From NCBI RefSeq assembly GCF_003018235.1, contig NZ_CP027437.1: a DNA stretch of 64,000 nt, one strand, 5' to 3'. Shown here one piece after another: positions 3,378-49,190 of the stretch; the first letter of the stretch is position 1, and each line of letters opens with the position of its first letter. A program made the position numbers and the translations under genes. The notes beneath the pieces were generated by a model, which was not told where the DNA came from, searched no databases, and saw only the letters and a program-made list of their open reading frames with translations. The DNA is from Escherichia coli. Its GTDB lineage: Bacteria; Pseudomonadota; Gammaproteobacteria; Enterobacterales; Enterobacteriaceae.

Positions 3378-6074
3378 TTACTGCCAGCCGTAACGACGGC
3401 TATAGAACCCTTTCACCAACTGGGTTAACGTCATATACCCTGCCAGAATCGCAACCAGCCACGGGAAATAGCTTAACGGCAGCGCCTGCAGCTGCAGATA
3501 ACTGGCCAGCGGTGAAAACGGCAATGCGATCCCGACAATCATCACGATCACGGTCATGATCATTAACGGCCACGATGCACAGCTCTGAATAAACGGTACA
3601 CGACGGGTGCGGATCATATGCACAATCAGCGTTTGCGACAGTAAGCCCACCACAAACCAGCCCGACTGGAACAGCGTTTGCGTTTCCGGCGTGTTGGCAT
3701 GGAATACCCACCACATCAGGCAAAACGTCAGAATATCGAAGATCGAGCTGATCGGTCCGAAGAAGATCATAAAGCGCCCCAGATCCGCCGGATTCCAACG
3801 CTGCGGCTTTTGAATTTGCTCATCGTCGACGTTATCAAACGGGATCGCCACCTGTGACACATCGTACAGCAGGTTCTGAATAAGCAAGTGTAACGGCAAC
3901 ATCGGCAGGAAGGGCAAGAAAGCACTCGCCACCAGCACGCTGAACACATTACCGAAGTTAGAGCTCGCCGTCATTTTGATGTATTTCAGCATGTTGGCGA
4001 AAGTGCGACGTCCCTCAATAACCCCCTCTTCCAGCACCATCAGGCTTTTTTCCAGCAGGATGATATCAGCCGCTTCACGGGCAATATCTACCGCGCCGTC
4101 CACAGAAATGCCGATATCCGCAGCACGTAAGGCGGGCGCATCATTTATACCATCGCCCATAAAGCCAACCACATGCCCTTCGCGCTTCAGTAAGGTCACA
4201 ATGCGTTCTTTATGCATCGGCGTCAGGCGAGCAAACAGCGTGGTGCGCTGTGCGAGATTTGCCAGTTCATCGTCAGATAGCGTTTCAATATCACTACCAA
4301 TGACCACCTCTCCCGCGTCCAGCCCCACTTCATGGCACACTTTCGCTGCAACTAACTCACTGTCGCCAGTAAGGATTTTTACGGTAATGCCACTCGCTTT
4401 TAATGCCTTCAGTGCCGGAGCAGTTGTCTCTTTTGGCGGATCAAGGAAAGCAATATATCCTTCGAGGATCAGGTCGGATTCATCCGCTCGCTGGTAATCG
4501 CCTTCACGCGCTGGCAGGTATTTCGTCGCCACCGCAACCACGCGCAGCCCCTGACGATTCAGCGTATCGGTAACCCGCTTAATCTTACGCAGCATGATGT
4601 CATCGAGTGGTACAATCTCGCCATTGTGACGCACCTGCGAACACACATTGAGGATTTCCTGCAATGCACCTTTGCAAACCAGCTGATGGTGCTCGGTATT
4701 TTCTGCCACTACCACCGACATCCGGCGACGCTCGAAATCAAACGGAATCTCATCAATTTTTTGCCAACGGCTGGCCAGCGAGCGCGCTGACTCTTCATCC
4801 GTACGTTCGAGCACCGCGGTATCAAGCAGGTTTTTAAGTCCGGTCTGGTAATGACTGTTCAACCACGCGCTATGCAGCACGCGTTCGCTGGTTTTACCGG
4901 AGATATCGGTATGATTCTCCAGCACAATTTTGTCCTGCGTCAGGGTGCCGGTTTTATCAGTGCACAGAATATCCATTGCGCCAAAGTTCTGAATGGCATC
5001 CAGATGCTTGACGATCACTTTCTGTTTCGACAGCTTTACTGCGCCGCGCGCCAGCGTCGAGGTAACAATCATCGGCAACATTTCTGGCGTTAAGCCTACC
5101 GCGACCGAAAGCGCAAACAGTGCCGCTTCCCACCAGTCACCTTTGGTGTAACCGTTGATAAGCAACACCACCGGAGCCATCACCAGCATAAAGCGAATCA
5201 GCAGCATACTGACGCGGCTGATCCCTTGCTGAAAGGCATTCGGCTCGCTTTCCTGCTCACTAACACGCCCCGCCAGTTGACCAAACCAAGTGTTGGCTCC
5301 TGTAGCAATCACCATTGCTTGTGCCGTGCCGCTCACCACGGTGGTGCCCATAAAACACAGGGTGTCGCACTCCAGCGGATTGCTGTGCTCCGGCTGGCGA
5401 GTGGTTGCAGCTTTTTCTACGGGCAGAGACTCGCCGGTTAACGACGCCTGAGCGACGAACAGATCCCGCGCCTGCAAGATACGTAAATCTGCCGGGATCA
5501 TATCTCCCGCCGCCAGTTTTATAATATCGCCGGGCACCAGCTGGTCGATCGGGATCTCCAGCCAGCCATTTTCGCCTTTGTCGTTAATTACGCGCAGCAC
5601 CGTCGCGGTATTGCTGACCATCGCTTTCAGGGCATCTGCCGCTTTAGTGGAACGTGCTTCCTGAATAAAGTTCAGCAACGTAGAAATAGCGACCATTAGC
5701 GCGATAACACCCGCGGCAAATAAATCTTCCGTGGCGTAAGAAATAGCGCCGAGAATGGTGAGTAAAATATTAAAGGGGTTGCGATAGCAGACCCATAAAT
5801 GAACCCACCACGGCGACGGTTGTTGTGCGGGTAATTTATTTTCACCATGTTGTTCGCGGGCAGATTCCACTTCCGCCTGATTTAATCCTTCCGGATGGGT
5901 GTCGAACGTTTTCCACAATTCTTCTTCGGGCATCACCGCCATTTTCAGGCAATGCGCACTTAAGGACGGCGGGACCGCCGTATTCACTGTCTGCTGCGCG
6001 CCAGGCAATGGATCGCGATGAACCAGACGGGAAGGTAAATGGCGAATGAACCGGGTAAAAATTTCTTTAAACAT
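3378..6074 (-). CDS. mgtA: Mg2+-importing P-type ATPase
   Basis: 898-aa ORF; P-type ATPase motifs DKTGTLT and GDGINDAPAL visible in translation. Confidence 0.95.
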   Translation of the reverse strand: MFKEIFTRFIRHLPSRLVHRDPLPGAQQTVNTAVPPSLSAHCLKMAVMPEEELWKTFDTHPEGLNQAEVESAREQHGENKLPAQQPSPWWVHLWVCYRNPFNILLTILGAISYATEDLFAAGVIALMVAISTLLNFIQEARSTKAADALKAMVSNTATVLRVINDKGENGWLEIPIDQLVPGDIIKLAAGDMIPADLRILQARDLFVAQASLTGESLPVEKAATTRQPEHSNPLECDTLCFMGTTVVSGTAQAMVIATGANTWFGQLAGRVSEQESEPNAFQQGISRVSMLLIRFMLVMAPVVLLINGYTKGDWWEAALFALSVAVGLTPEMLPMIVTSTLARGAVKLSKQKVIVKHLDAIQNFGAMDILCTDKTGTLTQDKIVLENHTDISGKTSERVLHSAWLNSHYQTGLKNLLDTAVLERTDEESARSLASRWQKIDEIPFDFERRRMSVVVAENTEHHQLVCKGALQEILNVCSQVRHNGEIVPLDDIMLRKIKRVTDTLNRQGLRVVAVATKYLPAREGDYQRADESDLILEGYIAFLDPPKETTAPALKALKASGITVKILTGDSELVAAKVCHEVGLDAGEVVIGSDIETLSDDELANLAQRTTLFARLTPMHKERIVTLLKREGHVVGFMGDGINDAPALRAADIGISVDGAVDIAREAADIILLEKSLMVLEEGVIEGRRTFANMLKYIKMTASSNFGNVFSVLVASAFLPFLPMLPLHLLIQNLLYDVSQVAIPFDNVDDEQIQKPQRWNPADLGRFMIFFGPISSIFDILTFCLMWWVFHANTPETQTLFQSGWFVVGLLSQTLIVHMIRTRRVPFIQSCASWPLMIMTVIVMIVGIALPFSPLASYLQLQALPLSYFPWLVAILAGYMTLTQLVKGFYSRRYGWQ

Positions 6075-6340
6075 AAGGAGTCCCTCCGCACTGTCTGAAA
6101 CAGTACAGAAATGTCTTCAGGCGTGGCGAAGCCTTACCTGAAGGTAATAAAGCTGAGCAGGGACGTTAAAACGTCACGGCCTTACGCATCCGGTAACGCC
6201 GTGAAAAGACGGGCTTACCGGAAAAGTTTTAATCTCCGTCGAGGGAGAGGCGTGGGATCAGGTTCCATATAACCTCCGGTAAGTGAAAAAAGCGCCGCAA
6301 ATAATAAGGAGAATCCAATAATATTCGTAGCATCTATGGC
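6075..6340 (-). promoter_or_regulatory. mgtA 5' leader (Mg2+/proline-responsive attenuator region)
   Basis: Long untranslated leader upstream of mgtA containing the mgtL leader ORF; extent approximate. Confidence 0.5.
6215..6268 (-). CDS. mgtL: mgtA leader peptide (17 aa, [17 protein letters not shown])
   Basis: Last 17 codons of the spurious 113-aa ORF 6215..6556; ATG at 6268-6266; proline-rich. Confidence 0.7.
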
Positions 6341-6452
6341 GATATAATACCTGCTGGCAACTAAACCAACGATAAACCAGACTTTACCCATTGCTGAATG
6401 CACGGGTAAAGTTAGGCTCAAATAATTAAACAACACGTTACGGGACAACAGG

Positions 6453-7400
6453 ATGCAAAATCGGCTGACCATCAAAGACATCGCGCGCTTAAGCGGCGTG
6501 GGGAAATCTACGGTTTCCCGGGTGCTGAATAACGAAAGCGGCGTGAGCCAGCGCACGCGCGAGCGTGTTGAAGCAGTGATGAATCAGCATGGATTTTCCC
6601 CTTCCCGCTCTGCGCGCGCTATGCGTGGGCAAAGCGATAAAGTGGTCGCCATCATTGTTACCCGTCTGGATTCGTTGTCAGAAAATCTCGCCGTTCAAAC
6701 CATGCTGCCAGCGTTCTATGAACAAGGTTACGATCCAATCATGATGGAAAGTCAGTTTTCCCCGCAATTAGTTGCCGAACATTTGGGGGTGCTGAAACGG
6801 CGTAATATCGACGGCGTAGTGCTGTTCGGTTTTACCGGCATAACAGAAGAAATGTTAGCCCACTGGCAGTCATCGCTGGTTCTGCTGGCGCGTGACGCAA
6901 AAGGCTTTGCTTCGGTCTGTTATGACGACGAAGGGGCAATCAAGATCCTGATGCAACGGCTGTATGACCAGGGACATCGTAATATCAGTTATCTCGGCGT
7001 GCCGCACAGTGACGTGACGACCGGTAAGCGACGTCACGAAGCCTACCTGGCGTTCTGCAAAGCGCATAAACTGCATCCCGTTGCCGCCCTGCCAGGCCTT
7101 GCTATGAAGCAAGGCTATGAGAACGTAGCAAAAGTGATTACGCCTGAAACTACCGCCTTACTGTGCGCAACCGACACGCTGGCACTTGGTGCAAGTAAAT
7201 ACCTGCAAGAGCAACGCATCGACACCTTGCAACTGGCGAGCGTCGGTAATACGCCGTTAATGAAATTCCTCCATCCGGAGATCGTCACCGTAGATCCTGG
7301 TTACGCCGAAGCTGGACGCCAGGCGGCCTGCCAGTTGATCGCGCAGGTAACCGGGCGCAGCGAACCGCAACAAATCATCATCCCCGCCACCCTGTCCTGA
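6453..7400 (+). CDS. treR: trehalose operon repressor (LacI family)
   Basis: 315-aa ORF; N-terminal HTH IKDIARLSGVGKSTVSRVLN. Confidence 0.9.
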   Translation: MQNRLTIKDIARLSGVGKSTVSRVLNNESGVSQRTRERVEAVMNQHGFSPSRSARAMRGQSDKVVAIIVTRLDSLSENLAVQTMLPAFYEQGYDPIMMESQFSPQLVAEHLGVLKRRNIDGVVLFGFTGITEEMLAHWQSSLVLLARDAKGFASVCYDDEGAIKILMQRLYDQGHRNISYLGVPHSDVTTGKRRHEAYLAFCKAHKLHPVAALPGLAMKQGYENVAKVITPETTALLCATDTLALGASKYLQEQRIDTLQLASVGNTPLMKFLHPEIVTVDPGYAEAGRQAACQLIAQVTGRSEPQQIIIPATLS

Positions 7401-45466: not shown

Positions 45467-46105
45467 ATGCCCGGGCGCTTTGAACTAAAACCAACCCTGG
45501 AGAAAGTCTGGCACGCGCCGGACAATTTTCGCTTCATGGACCCGCTGCCGCCGATGCATCGTCGGGGGATCATTATTGCCGCCATTGTATTGGTGGTCGG
45601 ATTTCTGCTTCCATCTGATGATACGCCCAACGCGCCGGTGGTGACGCGTGAAGCGCAGTTAGATATTCAGTCGCAATCACAACCGCCGACAGAAGAACAG
45701 CTGCGGGCGCAATTAGTCACCCCACAAAATGATCCTGATCAGGTGGCTCCGGTCGCTCCAGAACCTATACAGGAAGGCCAGCCAGAAGAGCAGCCGCAAA
45801 CTACCCAAACGCAACCATTCCAGCCAGATAGCGGAATTGATAATCAATGGCGCTCTTACCGTGTCGAACCCGGTAAAACGATGGCGCAGCTGTTCCGCGA
45901 CCACGGACTGCCCGCTACCGATGTCTATGCAATGGCGCAGGTAGAAGGCGCGGATAAGCCGCTGAGTAATTTGCAAAACGGGCAGATGGTGAAAATCCGC
46001 CAGAACGCCAGCGGCGTGGTGACGGGCTTAACCATTGATACGGGGAATAATCAACAGGTCCTGTTTACCCGCCAGTCGGATGGCAGTTTTATTCGTGCGC
46101 GGTAG
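45467..46105 (+). CDS. ytfB: OapA/LysM-domain protein YtfB
   Basis: 212-aa product from [13 protein letters not shown]; transmembrane segment then Pro/Gln-rich linker and C-terminal OapA-like domain. Confidence 0.8.
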
Positions 46106-46544
46106 TAGATGAAGGGTCAACCAAAAGCCAGCTAAGGAGCGTCTCTTTGATGACCTTACGTCTGGCTTCCAGTGCCTGGGGGGAAACCATACTGATATGA
46201 TAAACCAGGCCAAGCGTATGCTGGTTGATCAAATAATATCCCCCAAGCGCAGCAATATTAATATACACCTGCAATGGGTCGATATCTGGCTTAAAAATAT
46301 TGTGTTTCTTCCCTTCATCCAATAAGGATTCCATTAACTGCAAGTGCGCATGATTAATTTCTAAGAGACGCTGTGATTTTGCATAATGCACACCTTTACT
46401 TTGGTTTTCACTATGCACAATTTTTAAAAACCAGGGATTAGCAATATAATAACCCCAGGTAAAATCGATGATTTTTTCAATGGCTTTTTGTGGCTGGTTA
46501 ACCTGCTGATTAACGAACGCACCGATACCGACAGCGTAGAATAA
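46089..46544 (-). pseudogene. ytfA: TetR-family regulator remnant (C-terminal domain only, no start codon, no HTH)
   Basis: Reading frame runs open from a stop at 46545-46547 with no ATG; GTG at 46418 is the only candidate start; product lacks the N-terminal HTH. Confidence 0.6.
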
Positions 46545-46767
46545 TTACATACCGCACAACAAGAATGTATGGTGTAAGGCGTTGTCAGTCATCTCCCTCC
46601 CTGGGTGCATCGTTATATCCGTGATGAGCGATTTTTGATATTAATATCTTTTACTATCCGCTATTTTCACCACTTCAGAAAACAAACTTATTTTTATTAA
46701 TATCAACTCTTTTTCTTTGAACATTCAACTGCGATATTTGTAAAAATATTAAACAGGCAACAATAAA

Positions 46768-47562
46768 ATGACATTACCAACAACTATTTATTCATTTCCT
46801 GCATATTCACCCCGTTTTTCGTCCACCGACAAACCAGTAAAATTAAAATTTCATCAATACGCACGCGCTACATTACTTTCAAATCGTGGAAGAGACCATA
46901 ATTGCGATGGCAGACATACTGTTGAGATCCACAAACTAGATCTCTCAGACTGGCAAGCATTCAATAAGTTAGCGACGAGGTGTAATACTTACGATGGAAT
47001 AACAATGAATGGTGATAATTCTTTTGGATGGAACCATGAAGCTACATTAGATAATATTCACGCCCAGAAATACAATAAAGCTTACGCGGGTGCGAGGTTA
47101 ACCGCAGAACTGAAATATTTATTGCAAGATGTCGAATCCTTCGAACCCAACAGTAAATACACAATACACGAGGTTGTTTTGGGTCCAGGTTATGGTACTC
47201 CAGACTATACCGGCCAAACGATAGGATACGTTGTAACCCTTCCTGCCCAAATGCCTAATTGCTGGTCATCTGAACTACCAACAATCGATCTTTATATCGA
47301 CCAACTTCGCACTGTTACAGGCGTTTCTAATGCCCTCGGATTCATCATTGCTGCATTGCTAAACGCGTATTCTGATTTACCCCATGATTTGAAAATTGGT
47401 CTGCGTTCCTTATCAAGTTCAGCAGCAATCTACTCGGGTTTGGGTTTCGAACGAGTGCCACAGGACCGAGACATAAGGTGCGATCATATGCATCTAACGC
47501 CAGCAAACCATCCTGAATTATGGACACAGGAGAATGGTGAATGGATCTACTTGCGAAACTAA
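46768..47562 (+). CDS. yjfZ: uncharacterised protein (AT-rich gene)
   Basis: 264-aa ORF in an AT-rich block; no recognisable domain by eye. Confidence 0.7.
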   Translation: MTLPTTIYSFPAYSPRFSSTDKPVKLKFHQYARATLLSNRGRDHNCDGRHTVEIHKLDLSDWQAFNKLATRCNTYDGITMNGDNSFGWNHEATLDNIHAQKYNKAYAGARLTAELKYLLQDVESFEPNSKYTIHEVVLGPGYGTPDYTGQTIGYVVTLPAQMPNCWSSELPTIDLYIDQLRTVTGVSNALGFIIAALLNAYSDLPHDLKIGLRSLSSSAAIYSGLGFERVPQDRDIRCDHMHLTPANHPELWTQENGEWIYLRN

Positions 47563-47587
47563 TACCTGACGAAAAATAGAAAGCAAA

Positions 47588-47612
47588 ACGCCGACCAATG
47601 GTCGGCGTTTTT
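47588..47612. terminator. bidirectional intrinsic terminator between yjfZ and rplI (ACGCCGACC-AATG-GGTCGGCGT then TTTT)
   Basis: 9-bp stem flanked by A-run upstream and T-run downstream. Confidence 0.6.
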
Positions 47613-47632
47613 ACGTCTCGTTGAATAACGAA

Positions 47633-48094
<462 letters not shown>

Positions 48095-48676: not shown

Positions 48677-49190
<514 letters not shown>

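Follow-up and report, generated by a model that had tools for sequence, protein, structure and literature searches.

The ytfA' fragment between ytfB and rplI is very likely the dead tail of a TetR repressor, left by an old deletion of its HTH half, its operator and an operon of ~9 kb, with the neighboring yjfZ as a separate matter. The window, that is, the whole 64,000-nucleotide stretch of Escherichia coli DNA analyzed here, carries at this place the E. coli region cycA-fklB-ytfB-ytfA'-yjfZ-rplI-rpsR-priB-rpsF, with the following features.

46089..46494, minus strand: ytfA', TetR/AcrR-family remnant, encoding residues 83-215 of the intact 215-aa protein and ending in the stop codon
46196..46199: IS609 insertion site in the remnant, empty in the window (collinearity with locus L002 breaks at 46196/46199)
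46494..46495: left deletion junction, 545 bp missing relative to intact alleles
46495..~46603, plus strand: relic of a short-chain dehydrogenase/reductase (SDR) gene, annotated "3-ketoacyl-ACP reductase" in the intact form, ~codons 30-66, ~109 bp
46604..46767: AT-rich spacer upstream of yjfZ, GC 0.33-0.35
46731..47574: 844-bp segment absent from the E1V33 deletion allele, consisting of yjfZ with 37 bp upstream and 12 bp downstream
46768..47562, plus strand: yjfZ ORF, 264 aa, DUF2686 (YjfZ/YjiC) family, Pfam PF10887
47585..47611: hairpin with perfect 13-bp arms between the convergent yjfZ and rplI, from terminator and inverted-repeat scans

The minus-strand frame at 46089-46544 has 151 open codons between a stop just upstream of 46544 and the stop at 46089. 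No ATG lies near its 5' end, and the first listed start is a GTG at 46418, which yields a 109-aa ORF. The original prediction had described this frame as encoding only a TetR C-terminal domain without the HTH, and both translation and Pfam agreed: TetR_C_29 alone was matched (E 1.6e-30, profile positions 1-118 of 119), with no Pfam match in the frame to the TetR_N HTH (PF00440), which the intact homologue carries at residues 19-61. In BLASTP, the remnant was identical to the intact AR_0069 protein at 130 of 134 positions (97%) over residues 83-215. The domain content, the alignment start at residue 83 and the K-12 pseudogene ytfA at the same place all bear out the view of a decayed gene. Its 3' end overlaps the 3' end of ytfB by 17 nt (the ytfB ORF ends at 46105), and relative to MG1655 the window has an extra in-frame Thr codon near the C-terminus. 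The predicted extent of the frame held only in part, since alignment to intact TetR homologues placed the truncation at 46494, not 46544: positions 46089-46494 are TetR-derived, and the opening 50 nt of the frame (46495-46544) come from the relic of another gene, read antisense. The blastn collinearity of the window with intact loci stops at 46494, the sequence past this point is SDR-derived, and neither an in-frame TetR continuation nor an upstream in-frame start with an HTH was found, so that the gene still counts as decayed. Among the attributes of a functional TetR/AcrR regulator, the all-helical C-terminal ligand-binding/dimerisation domain is present, and the HTH, a complete ORF, the operator and the targets are missing. 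A remnant with no DNA-binding domain, operator or target is therefore inert as a regulator.

The junction itself could be mapped against intact alleles. By blastn, window position 46494 corresponds to position 4048 of locus L004 (an allele with operon, MFS gene and yjfZ) and 46498 to position 4594, and the 545 bp lost hold codons 1-82 of the TetR gene, the spacer with the divergent promoters and the operator, and ~88 bp from the start of the SDR gene. A microhomology, GTGGCGGA, is present at both parental sites, and the window junction reads GTGGCTGG. The SDR relic that begins here is a piece of the lost operon's first gene, lies antisense to the remnant frame and contains two in-frame stops; it is 82-85% identical to the SDR gene of L001, L004 and L006 (blastn), and its translation aligned against NLLINDLPDADSVEKLHITQQECIAEGV of the intact SDR. 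In a multiple alignment of the MG1655 and E1V33 relics with eight intact alleles, a derived GAATAA stop was common to the relics. The right-hand junction is placed only approximately, because the sequence at 46579-46603 has diverged. An old, microhomology-mediated deletion of 545 bp took away the HTH, both promoters and the operator together with the beginning of the SDR gene, and a second loss took the remaining operon, leaving the 133 C-terminal TetR codons, the ~109-bp SDR relic, the AT-rich spacer and yjfZ. A derivation of the K-12-type allele from L004 by simple double deletion was considered and, in this direction, dismissed: downstream of the MFS gene in L004 lies an SDR-relic 3' end that has diverged as in the window. 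More probably, L004 arose by secondary recombination and acquired its yjfZ segment from an allele with the deletion.

The intact regulator lies between ytfB and rplI in other E. coli, and tblastn found it there in E. whittamii, Klebsiella spallanzanii and Entomohabitans; in E. albertii it adjoins ytfB, and the contig ends inside the operon. The intact configuration is annotated in E. coli AR_0069, QA-1986 83 and S1-CAM-01-A. The 215-aa regulator is divergent from a ~9-kb operon for five enzymes (the SDR, a xylose-isomerase-like TIM-barrel enzyme, an enoyl-CoA hydratase, a fused family-I CoA transferase and a 693-aa FAD flavoprotein) and a transporter of either the MFS (anion:cation symporter type) or the TRAP class. 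The lost operon appears to be a nutrient-use, catabolic one, presumably under TetR repressor control, and the ancestral Escherichia ytfB-rplI interval held the 215-aa TetR/AcrR repressor divergent from it. A 22-bp palindrome, ATCAACCA-N6-TGGTTGAT, lies between regulator and operon and is exact in seven intact loci, including that of Entomohabitans; no copy occurs anywhere in the window, even with 3 mismatches allowed. The sequence ATCAACCAACCAGATGGTTGAT is a putative DNA target of the intact regulator. By analogy with standard TetR-family behavior, a repressor dimer would bind the palindrome and be freed by a substrate or intermediate of the pathway. Close relatives of the TetR protein were found in no more than seven species-level genomes, and beyond these the best matches, in alphaproteobacteria, have 38-40% identity; horizontal acquisition of the operon is plausible, though not proven.

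In a literature search on the function of the operon, we found only a comparative-genomics table entry. In CFT073, c5298-c5303 are listed as "SAC 18, 3-ketoacid metabolism", an uncharacterised metabolic set of uropathogenic E. coli, comprising six colinear genes that are present in uropathogenic strains and missing from several of the genomes compared (PMC2831201). This set is probably the same operon, as judged from the locus-tag position near rplI and the functional label only.

We took a census of 5426 complete E. coli genomes. The 5' part of the operon was present in 3158 (58%), with the TRAP version in 1446 and the MFS version in 1674-1693, and the deletion junction of the window in 2226 (41%). 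With the junction query covered at >=80%, IS609 was located inside the remnant in 1744 genomes, or 78% of those bearing the junction. This element (IS200/IS605 family, tnpA + tnpB/insQ) is annotated in the remnants of L002, L095 and L096, and IS609 and IS1 occur at the locus in other strains only. The junction also occurs in the divergent Escherichia sp. E1V33, whose flanks match the window at ~94% identity and whose relic has the derived stop too; bases 46480-46730 are common to E1V33 and the window. The deletion is old, because so divergent a lineage carries it. The relics differ from one another by 10-20% and from any intact Escherichia allele by 14-27%, and the intact Escherichia alleles are 4-11% apart.

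The composition changes sharply along this interval. GC is 0.33-0.38 over 46200-46950, 0.40-0.45 in yjfZ and 0.50-0.57 in the flanking genes, and the ytfB-rplI interval is an accessory-gene slot of atypical composition; the GC profile and the ORF list confirmed that an AT-rich region followed by the 264-aa yjfZ lies beyond the TetR frame. The yjfZ promoter and DNA bound by H-NS very probably lie in the spacer at 46604..46767. In K-12, the spacer between yjfZ and ytfA had a peak for the RpoD holoenzyme and was flagged for H-NS in genomic SELEX in vitro, and a promoter for ytfA was predicted there from the RpoD data (PMC3946193). Our own promoter scan gave no more sites than shuffled sequence did. 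Short AT-rich inverted repeats, TTGATATTAATA / TATTAATATCAA, lie in the spacer at 46635-46706, and two deletion alleles share 85.9% identity over the spacer. Rfam at E<=1 returned no non-coding RNA in the spacer, its only results being the RpsF leader (49070-49154) and sub-threshold matches on the rplI terminator. The hairpin at 47585..47611 has the features of a bidirectional intrinsic terminator and forms the right end of the variable slot; all structural alleles are collinear again from ~47575-47580.

The yjfZ product had been thought to contain no recognizable domain, which proved incorrect: residues 5-264 match profile positions 17-285 of 285 of PF10887 (E 5e-152; 505 bits, cutoff 25), and it has a paralogue, YjiC, at 39% identity in K-12 and 39-40% in E. 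coli and E. albertii. Among five alleles, the yjfZ dN/dS was 0.10-0.28 (about 0.2), so that the gene is under purifying selection. Core-genome conservation, which would have spoken against an accessory gene, was not seen; yjfZ is present in 2538 of the 5426 genomes (47%). We detected no DUF2686 member outside Escherichia, a word-indexed search giving only E. coli, Shigella and E. albertii proteins, and a HMMER search of 1.84 billion representatives with YjfZ gave only fragments of the same family. No match was obtained in PHROGs, PADLOC or NCBIfam, and nothing meaningful in a profile search of PDB sequences. AlphaFold2 models had a mean pLDDT of 37.6 and 34.1 (alignments of 3 and 17 sequences), so that the structure prediction, though run, allowed no fold to be assigned. 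Foldseek with these low-pLDDT models retrieved nothing from the PDB at E<=0.001; its top non-significant matches (E ~2-7) included four GNAT-type entries, which carry no weight. A by-eye resemblance to GNAT motifs A and B, ...TGVSNALGF...(37 aa)...AAIYSGLGFERV, lacks support as well: YjfZ had no GNAT Pfam match at E<=10, isolated C-terminal halves included, the profile search of PDB sequences gave no GNAT, and hhalign of the family profile against the RimI profile returned a probability of 0.3-0.4%, both profiles being shallow (Neff below 2). YahL and YdjO, "E. coli-specific" proteins of similar length, were also rejected as paralogues, with no BLASTP similarity and no DUF2686 match.

Did yjfZ arrive as a horizontally transferred AT-rich islet whose insertion caused the loss of the operon or replaced it, with ytfA' as collateral damage? 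The low GC, the confinement of the family to Escherichia, the presence of the gene in under half of the genomes and the binding of H-NS to the spacer would fit such a history, as would the clean 844-bp indel between the window and E1V33, where blastn aligned 46480-46730 and 47575-47640 of the window to locus L020 and nothing between. However, the deletion does not require yjfZ, since E1V33 shows both it and the same AT-rich spacer in the absence of the gene, and ~312 genomes carry operon and yjfZ together. From these two combinations, yjfZ and the deletion are separable events; either yjfZ entered after the deletion or E1V33 lost it. Moreover, neither terminal repeats nor a target-site duplication bracket the 844-bp segment, the ytfB-rplI interval of the window has no mobility gene, and no IS element, integrase or tRNA surrounds yjfZ. 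No phage match and no PHROG or PADLOC family was found for yjfZ, nor any true plasmid homologue: its "plasmid" matches were only in records of 0.37-4.9 Mb predicted to be non-mobilizable, which we take to be mislabelled chromosomal sequence. The nearest relative is the resident paralogue yjiC. An islet that displaced the operon is thus unlikely. The original prediction of an eroded edge of an old horizontal islet keeps its accessory slot and atypical composition, but the thing that eroded is the ~9-kb TetR-controlled operon, intact in 58% of the genomes. We instead regard yjfZ as probably a separate, H-NS-targeted accessory gene, a diverged paralogue of yjiC whose soluble product is kept by purifying selection.

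The remnant frame is unexpectedly clean for dead sequence, its 134 codons being free of stops and frameshifts in the window, in MG1655 and in the divergent E1V33, and its dN/dS being 0.06-0.17 while the neighboring relic decayed. Such conservation, together with the SELEX-predicted ytfA promoter, would suit an HTH-less domain acting as a ligand-binding "sponge" or dimerisation partner, translated from an internal start such as GTG 46418 and maintained by selection. We consider this very improbable. In most genomes with the deletion allele (1744 of 2226), IS609 splits the remnant, and the resulting pieces show equal conservation of their protein sequence; besides the missing 5' ATG, no Shine-Dalgarno-like sequence was seen upstream of GTG 46418, and deletion-allele strains have no intact partner. 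The MG1655 remnant is 99.3% identical to intact L001 with zero amino-acid changes, and the adjacent MG1655 relic 78%, which points to conversion. Gene conversion from intact alleles, rather than function, is the best explanation of the clean frame on the evidence of a dozen sequences: the remnant beside ytfB would have been repeatedly overwritten through homologous recombination with circulating intact alleles, and the relic would have drifted because it lies beyond the deletion junction, out of reach of the overwriting.

That the short arrangement was ancestral and a TetR-operon cassette was inserted later, extending a short ORF, is almost certainly wrong despite the few enterobacterial species with close relatives of the regulator, as the window holds a piece from the interior of the SDR gene, out of context and riddled with stops, the remnant begins mid-domain at residue 83, both junctions are at microhomologies within genes, and the full operon occupies the same slot in four other species.

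The ytfB-rplI slot may be a very old, possibly trans-species presence/absence polymorphism in which the dead TetR half is continuously refreshed by gene conversion and so would retain protein-like substitutions much longer than the relic beside it, a tentative view to which we give slightly less than even chances. A bolder version would have the operon and deletion haplotypes kept by balancing selection on a gut substrate. If the refreshing is real, the TetR half would be a clear case in nature of a non-functional pseudogene that appears to be under selection, and a caution for evolutionary screens, in which an open frame and low dN/dS in a gene fragment may stem from gene conversion.

Comparison with known systems places these findings. 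Standard annotation already gives ytfA as a pseudogene and labels yjfZ as DUF2686. K-12 ytfA (b4205, annotated as a pseudogene) has the same locus, the same junction and a TetR_C_29-encoding remnant of 402-405 nt beside ytfB; compared with MG1655, the window is 96.5% identical in the remnant, 90% in the relic and 97.1% in yjfZ. The intact form of K-12 ytfA is the TetR/AcrR regulator of the WP_001299246 family, "ytfA" in Colclough et al. 2019 (PMC6790063), where it is a variable TetR-family regulator in E. coli and occurs in each of the five E. fergusonii and E. albertii strains studied. With the classical divergent repressors (TetR/TetA, AcrR/AcrAB and catabolic examples such as RutR and the Bacillus FadR of the NCBIfam matches), the intact allele shares the HTH, the C-terminal domain, the divergent operon and the palindrome, whereas the window has lost the HTH, operator and operon. 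Every NCBIfam match of the intact allele lay far under its cutoff, the best reaching 47 bits against 250, so it is an orthologue of no named regulator. What is added here is the precise anatomy of the scar, namely the 545-bp microhomology deletion, the unannotated SDR relic and the empty IS609 site, and the lost target of the regulator, an as yet uncharacterised catabolic operon that depends on CoA, in which MFS and TRAP transporters can replace each other and which has a candidate operator. This operon has been overlooked in laboratory-strain biology because it is absent from K-12, though present in more than half of E. coli genomes. The mechanistic importance of the locus is little.

YjiC (b4325, beside iraD) belongs to the same Pfam family as YjfZ, is 276 aa long against 264 aa, and shares 39% identity over the C-terminal ~220 residues and many invariant residues; it is likewise restricted to Escherichia. 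The two genes differ in distribution and place: yjiC is near-core (4895 of 5426 genomes) and lies in the uxuR-iraD interval, also in E. albertii, and yjfZ, in the ytfB-rplI slot, occurs in only 47% of complete E. coli genomes, which calls for caution in diagnostics. A published "YjfZ" qPCR assay in fact targets the paralogue yjiC.

The window carries cycA, fklB, ytfB, the ytfA remnant (ytfA′), yjfZ and rplI-rpsR-priB-rpsF in this order, with an RpsF leader (Rfam RF02893, 110 bits, E 5e-26; 49070-49154, minus strand) upstream of rpsF, as expected in the rpsF operon. The strain is not K-12; its yjfZ shares 97.1% identity with the MG1655 gene and 100% with the gene from an O169:H41 strain. Translation, the ORF list and Pfam agreed with the original prediction of an open minus-strand frame that lacks an ATG and encodes only a TetR C-terminal domain: 151 open codons run from a stop just upstream of 46544 to a stop at 46089, no ATG lies near the 5′ end (the first listed start codon is a GTG at 46418), and Pfam detected TetR_C_29 alone (E 1.6e-30), with no HTH domain. 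The AT-rich region said to lie beyond the frame was also found, the GC content being 0.33-0.38 across 46200-46950, 0.40-0.45 in yjfZ and 0.50-0.57 in the flanking genes.

A megablast search with 46000-47700 matched 5425 of 5426 complete E. coli genomes, only 2227 of which contained most of the query, and the partial matches revealed other arrangements of the ytfB-rplI interval. Strains with an intact regulator, whose neighbors the original prediction had proposed to inspect, were among them. In AR_0069 (locus L001) and QA-1986 83 (L006), the gene next after ytfB encodes an intact 215-aa TetR/AcrR protein and is divergent from eight genes that are directly followed by rplI:

Gene 1, SDR (short-chain dehydrogenase/reductase), annotated '3-ketoacyl-ACP reductase'
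Gene 2, sugar-phosphate-isomerase-type TIM barrel
Gene 3, enoyl-CoA hydratase
Gene 4, CoA transferase, 513 aa
Gene 5, FAD-dependent oxidoreductase, 693 aa
Genes 6-8, TRAP transporter DctQ, DctM and DctP

S1-CAM-01-A (L004) has the same five enzymes, then an MFS transporter, yjfZ and rplI. Pfam and NCBIfam supported these domain assignments, and neither gave a characterized equivalog above cutoff for the operon proteins or the regulator, except for the generic SDR model PRK12745.

Alignment to the intact TetR placed the truncation point at residue 83, window position 46494. Residues 83-215 align with the window frame (130/134 identical, with one additional Thr codon), whereas the frame lacks residues 1-82 and with them the HTH (19-61), confirming the gene as decayed; K-12 ytfA (b4205, 402 nt) is likewise annotated as a pseudogene. 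Nucleotide collinearity with the intact loci ends at 46494 and restarts at 46498 inside the SDR gene, 545 bp further along. Since both parental sites contain GTGGCGGA and the window junction reads GTGGCTGG, the truncation is a microhomology deletion. The features from the remnant onward are:

46089-46494, minus strand, TetR C-terminal codons
46495 to about 46603, SDR relic (~codons 30-66), with two in-frame stops and substitutions at all codon positions
AT-rich spacer
46768-47562, yjfZ
47585-47611, perfect hairpin with 13-bp arms, shared with rplI, where every allele regains collinearity

The TetR assignment of 46089-46544 therefore stands for 46089-46494, but the first 50 nt of that frame (46495-46544) are the antisense of the relic. 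The remnant is an ordinary pseudogene, rightly spotted, beside the lineage-restricted yjfZ.

The spacer between TetR and the operon contains a perfect palindrome, ATCAACCA-N6-TGGTTGAT, ~70 bp upstream of the SDR start (L001 12860-12881). Seven intact loci, ranging from E. coli to Entomohabitans (L001, L004, L006, L015, L016, L018 and L021), carry it unchanged; neither the E. albertii nor the K. spallanzanii locus yielded an exact copy, and the window has no match to it. It is a candidate operator of the intact TetR, lost from the window. The 3′ end of the operon occurs as two cassettes, TRAP QMP or MFS (L001 16927-21873 versus L004 8483-11925 and L016 2377-5813), and the FAD-oxidoreductase shares ~88-91% amino-acid identity with that of L001 in MFS-type or divergent-species loci versus 96.5% in another TRAP-type locus, which suggests that the distal part may be swapped as a block, with the oxidoreductase co-varying with the transporter cassette. 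In QA-1986 83, ytfB (annotated as a LysM-like protein) and TetR are only ~80-82% identical to the window (L006 1541-2809) and rplI is 99.8% identical, so that the former look like an imported divergent segment; this strain also has an additional YagU-family gene between yjfY and ulaF (L006 14170-14721).

The intact TetR was then used as query against 100,044 species, each represented by a single genome. Close relatives occurred in only seven genomes: four species-level Escherichia genomes in which the gene is intact, plus Escherichia sp. E1V33, Klebsiella spallanzanii and Entomohabitans teleogrylli. Below these, the best matches were alphaproteobacterial, at 38-40% identity. By tblastn, E. whittamii, K. 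spallanzanii and Entomohabitans have ytfB-TetR-five enzymes-MFS-rplI, the latter two with an additional EamA-type transporter gene ahead of rplI; E. albertii has ytfB-TetR-enzymes on a contig that stops within the operon, and in the divergent 'E. coli' genome SCPM-O-B-8794 the transporter is of the TRAP type. yjfZ is absent from all five of these loci. From these arrangements, the operon is the older occupant of the ytfB-rplI slot and the window state the derived one. The narrow distribution of the operon among enterobacteria makes its original horizontal acquisition plausible. In an Albidovulum sp. MAG (L022 500-10612), a TetR 38% identical to the intact regulator lies <10 kb from homologues of the CoA transferase (36%), SDR (41%) and TIM-barrel enzyme (41%), which hints that the enterobacterial operon may have distant alphaproteobacterial counterparts.

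Among the 5426 complete genomes, the 5′ part of the operon was present in 3158 (TRAP in 1446, MFS in 1674-1693), the TetR′/relic junction in 2226 and yjfZ in 2538; the difference between the last two corresponds to ~312 genomes with operon, MFS and yjfZ together. IS609 interrupts the remnant at about 46197 in 1744 genomes, O157:H7 included. These represent 78% of the deletion alleles, and thus the uninterrupted form of the window and K-12 is a minority. This IS200/IS605-family element carries tnpA and a TnpB/InsQ RNA-guided nuclease gene (L095 2297-3944; L002 10297-11938). It sits at the same remnant position across genomes (window ~46196-46199, empty) with flanks differing by up to 7%, so the insertion either is old and inherited widely or recombines.

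Escherichia sp. E1V33, ~94% identical to the window over cycA-TetR′, has the same junction and AT-rich spacer and lacks 46731-47574, corresponding to yjfZ. A derived GAATAA stop is common to the window, MG1655 and E1V33 relics. Relics differ by 10-20% from each other and by 14-27% from any intact Escherichia allele, while intact Escherichia alleles are 4-11% apart. Together, these points show the deletion to be old, and indicate a single event whose haplotype persists beside the intact operon.

No stop or frameshift interrupts the remnant in the window, in MG1655 or in E1V33, and comparisons with intact alleles or other remnants give it a dN/dS of 0.06-0.17, despite the decay of the relic just bases away. 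On its own, this pattern would speak for a selected, HTH-less protein made from the remnant. However, the MG1655 remnant shares 99.3% identity with the intact allele of AR_0069, with zero amino-acid differences, whereas the MG1655 relic is only 78% identical to the AR_0069 SDR gene, the divergence leaping sharply exactly at the junction. The remnants do not group together, that of the window being 97.3% identical to intact L001 and 96.5% to the MG1655 remnant, and the IS609-split remnants, unable to make the protein, retain the same near-perfect amino-acid sequence. These observations argue for gene conversion from intact alleles as the likely source of the clean frame; remnant variation would have been filtered by selection during residence in intact alleles. 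The TetR fragment is very probably non-functional. In Colclough et al., ytfA is one of the TetR-family regulators that vary across E. coli, and all E. fergusonii and E. albertii strains examined there had it (PMC6790063). The intact operon probably corresponds to CFT073 c5298-c5303, a set entered in a table as uncharacterised '3-ketoacid metabolism' genes (PMC2831201). Given the K-12 pseudogene annotation as well, a finding of this type is already known; the refinements here are the relic, the junctions, the census, the deletion in common with E1V33 and the conversion signature.

In L004, GCGTTGTCAGTCATCTCCC...CCCTGG, the 3′ end of a window-type diverged SDR relic, lies ~75 bp past the MFS stop codon. 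Most probably, this allele acquired its yjfZ segment from the deletion haplotype by illegitimate recombination; the same relic end disfavors L004 as the ancestor of that haplotype. IS1-mediated variants of the locus occur in other strains. The yjfZ upstream spacer (46583-46767) is only 85.9% identical between the window and the K-12-type allele of PJ-T13, with flanking ytfB and rplI at 99.4-99.6%, and AT-rich inverted repeats, TTGATATTAATA / TATTAATATCAA, lie at 46635-46706.

YjfZ, described earlier as lacking a recognisable domain, matches Pfam DUF2686 over its full length, in line with its K-12 annotation as a DUF2686 protein. It is 39% identical to K-12 YjiC, encoded between uxuR and iraD, and the homologue that the searches retrieved from E. 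albertii is the YjiC orthologue, in the same uxuR-yjiC-iraD context. Outside Escherichia/Shigella, no family member was found, not even when 1.84 billion representatives were scanned by HMMER with filters off. yjiC is near-core (4895/5426 genomes) and yjfZ accessory, showing neither core-genome conservation (47% of genomes) nor typical composition. Alleles of yjfZ have dS of 0.02-0.09 and dN/dS of 0.10-0.28, so the protein is maintained. By genomic SELEX in K-12, the yjfZ/ytfA spacer has an RpoD-holoenzyme site and bears an H-NS flag (PMC3946193), which fits an H-NS-silenced accessory gene. No mobile-element signature was found around yjfZ. AlphaFold2 models of YjfZ reached pLDDT 34-38, and Foldseek returned nothing significant for them, so no fold was assigned. 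A by-eye likeness to GNAT motifs A and B was unsupported by hhalign or Pfam. An acyltransferase-type enzyme that modifies small molecules or proteins is a doubtful guess, offered as a lead.

In both E. coli (L014, MG1655, 5491-7386) and E. albertii (L010 8960-10822), yjiC adjoins iraD, which encodes an anti-adaptor, GPW_gp25-like protein. Published 'YjfZ' qPCR primers (114-bp amplicon), for which the gene ID and length of yjfZ are cited (PMC11057252), have no match within 3 mismatches in the whole window and match exactly inside MG1655 yjiC (L014 5937-6050); what the assay targets is therefore yjiC (90% of complete genomes) rather than yjfZ (47%).
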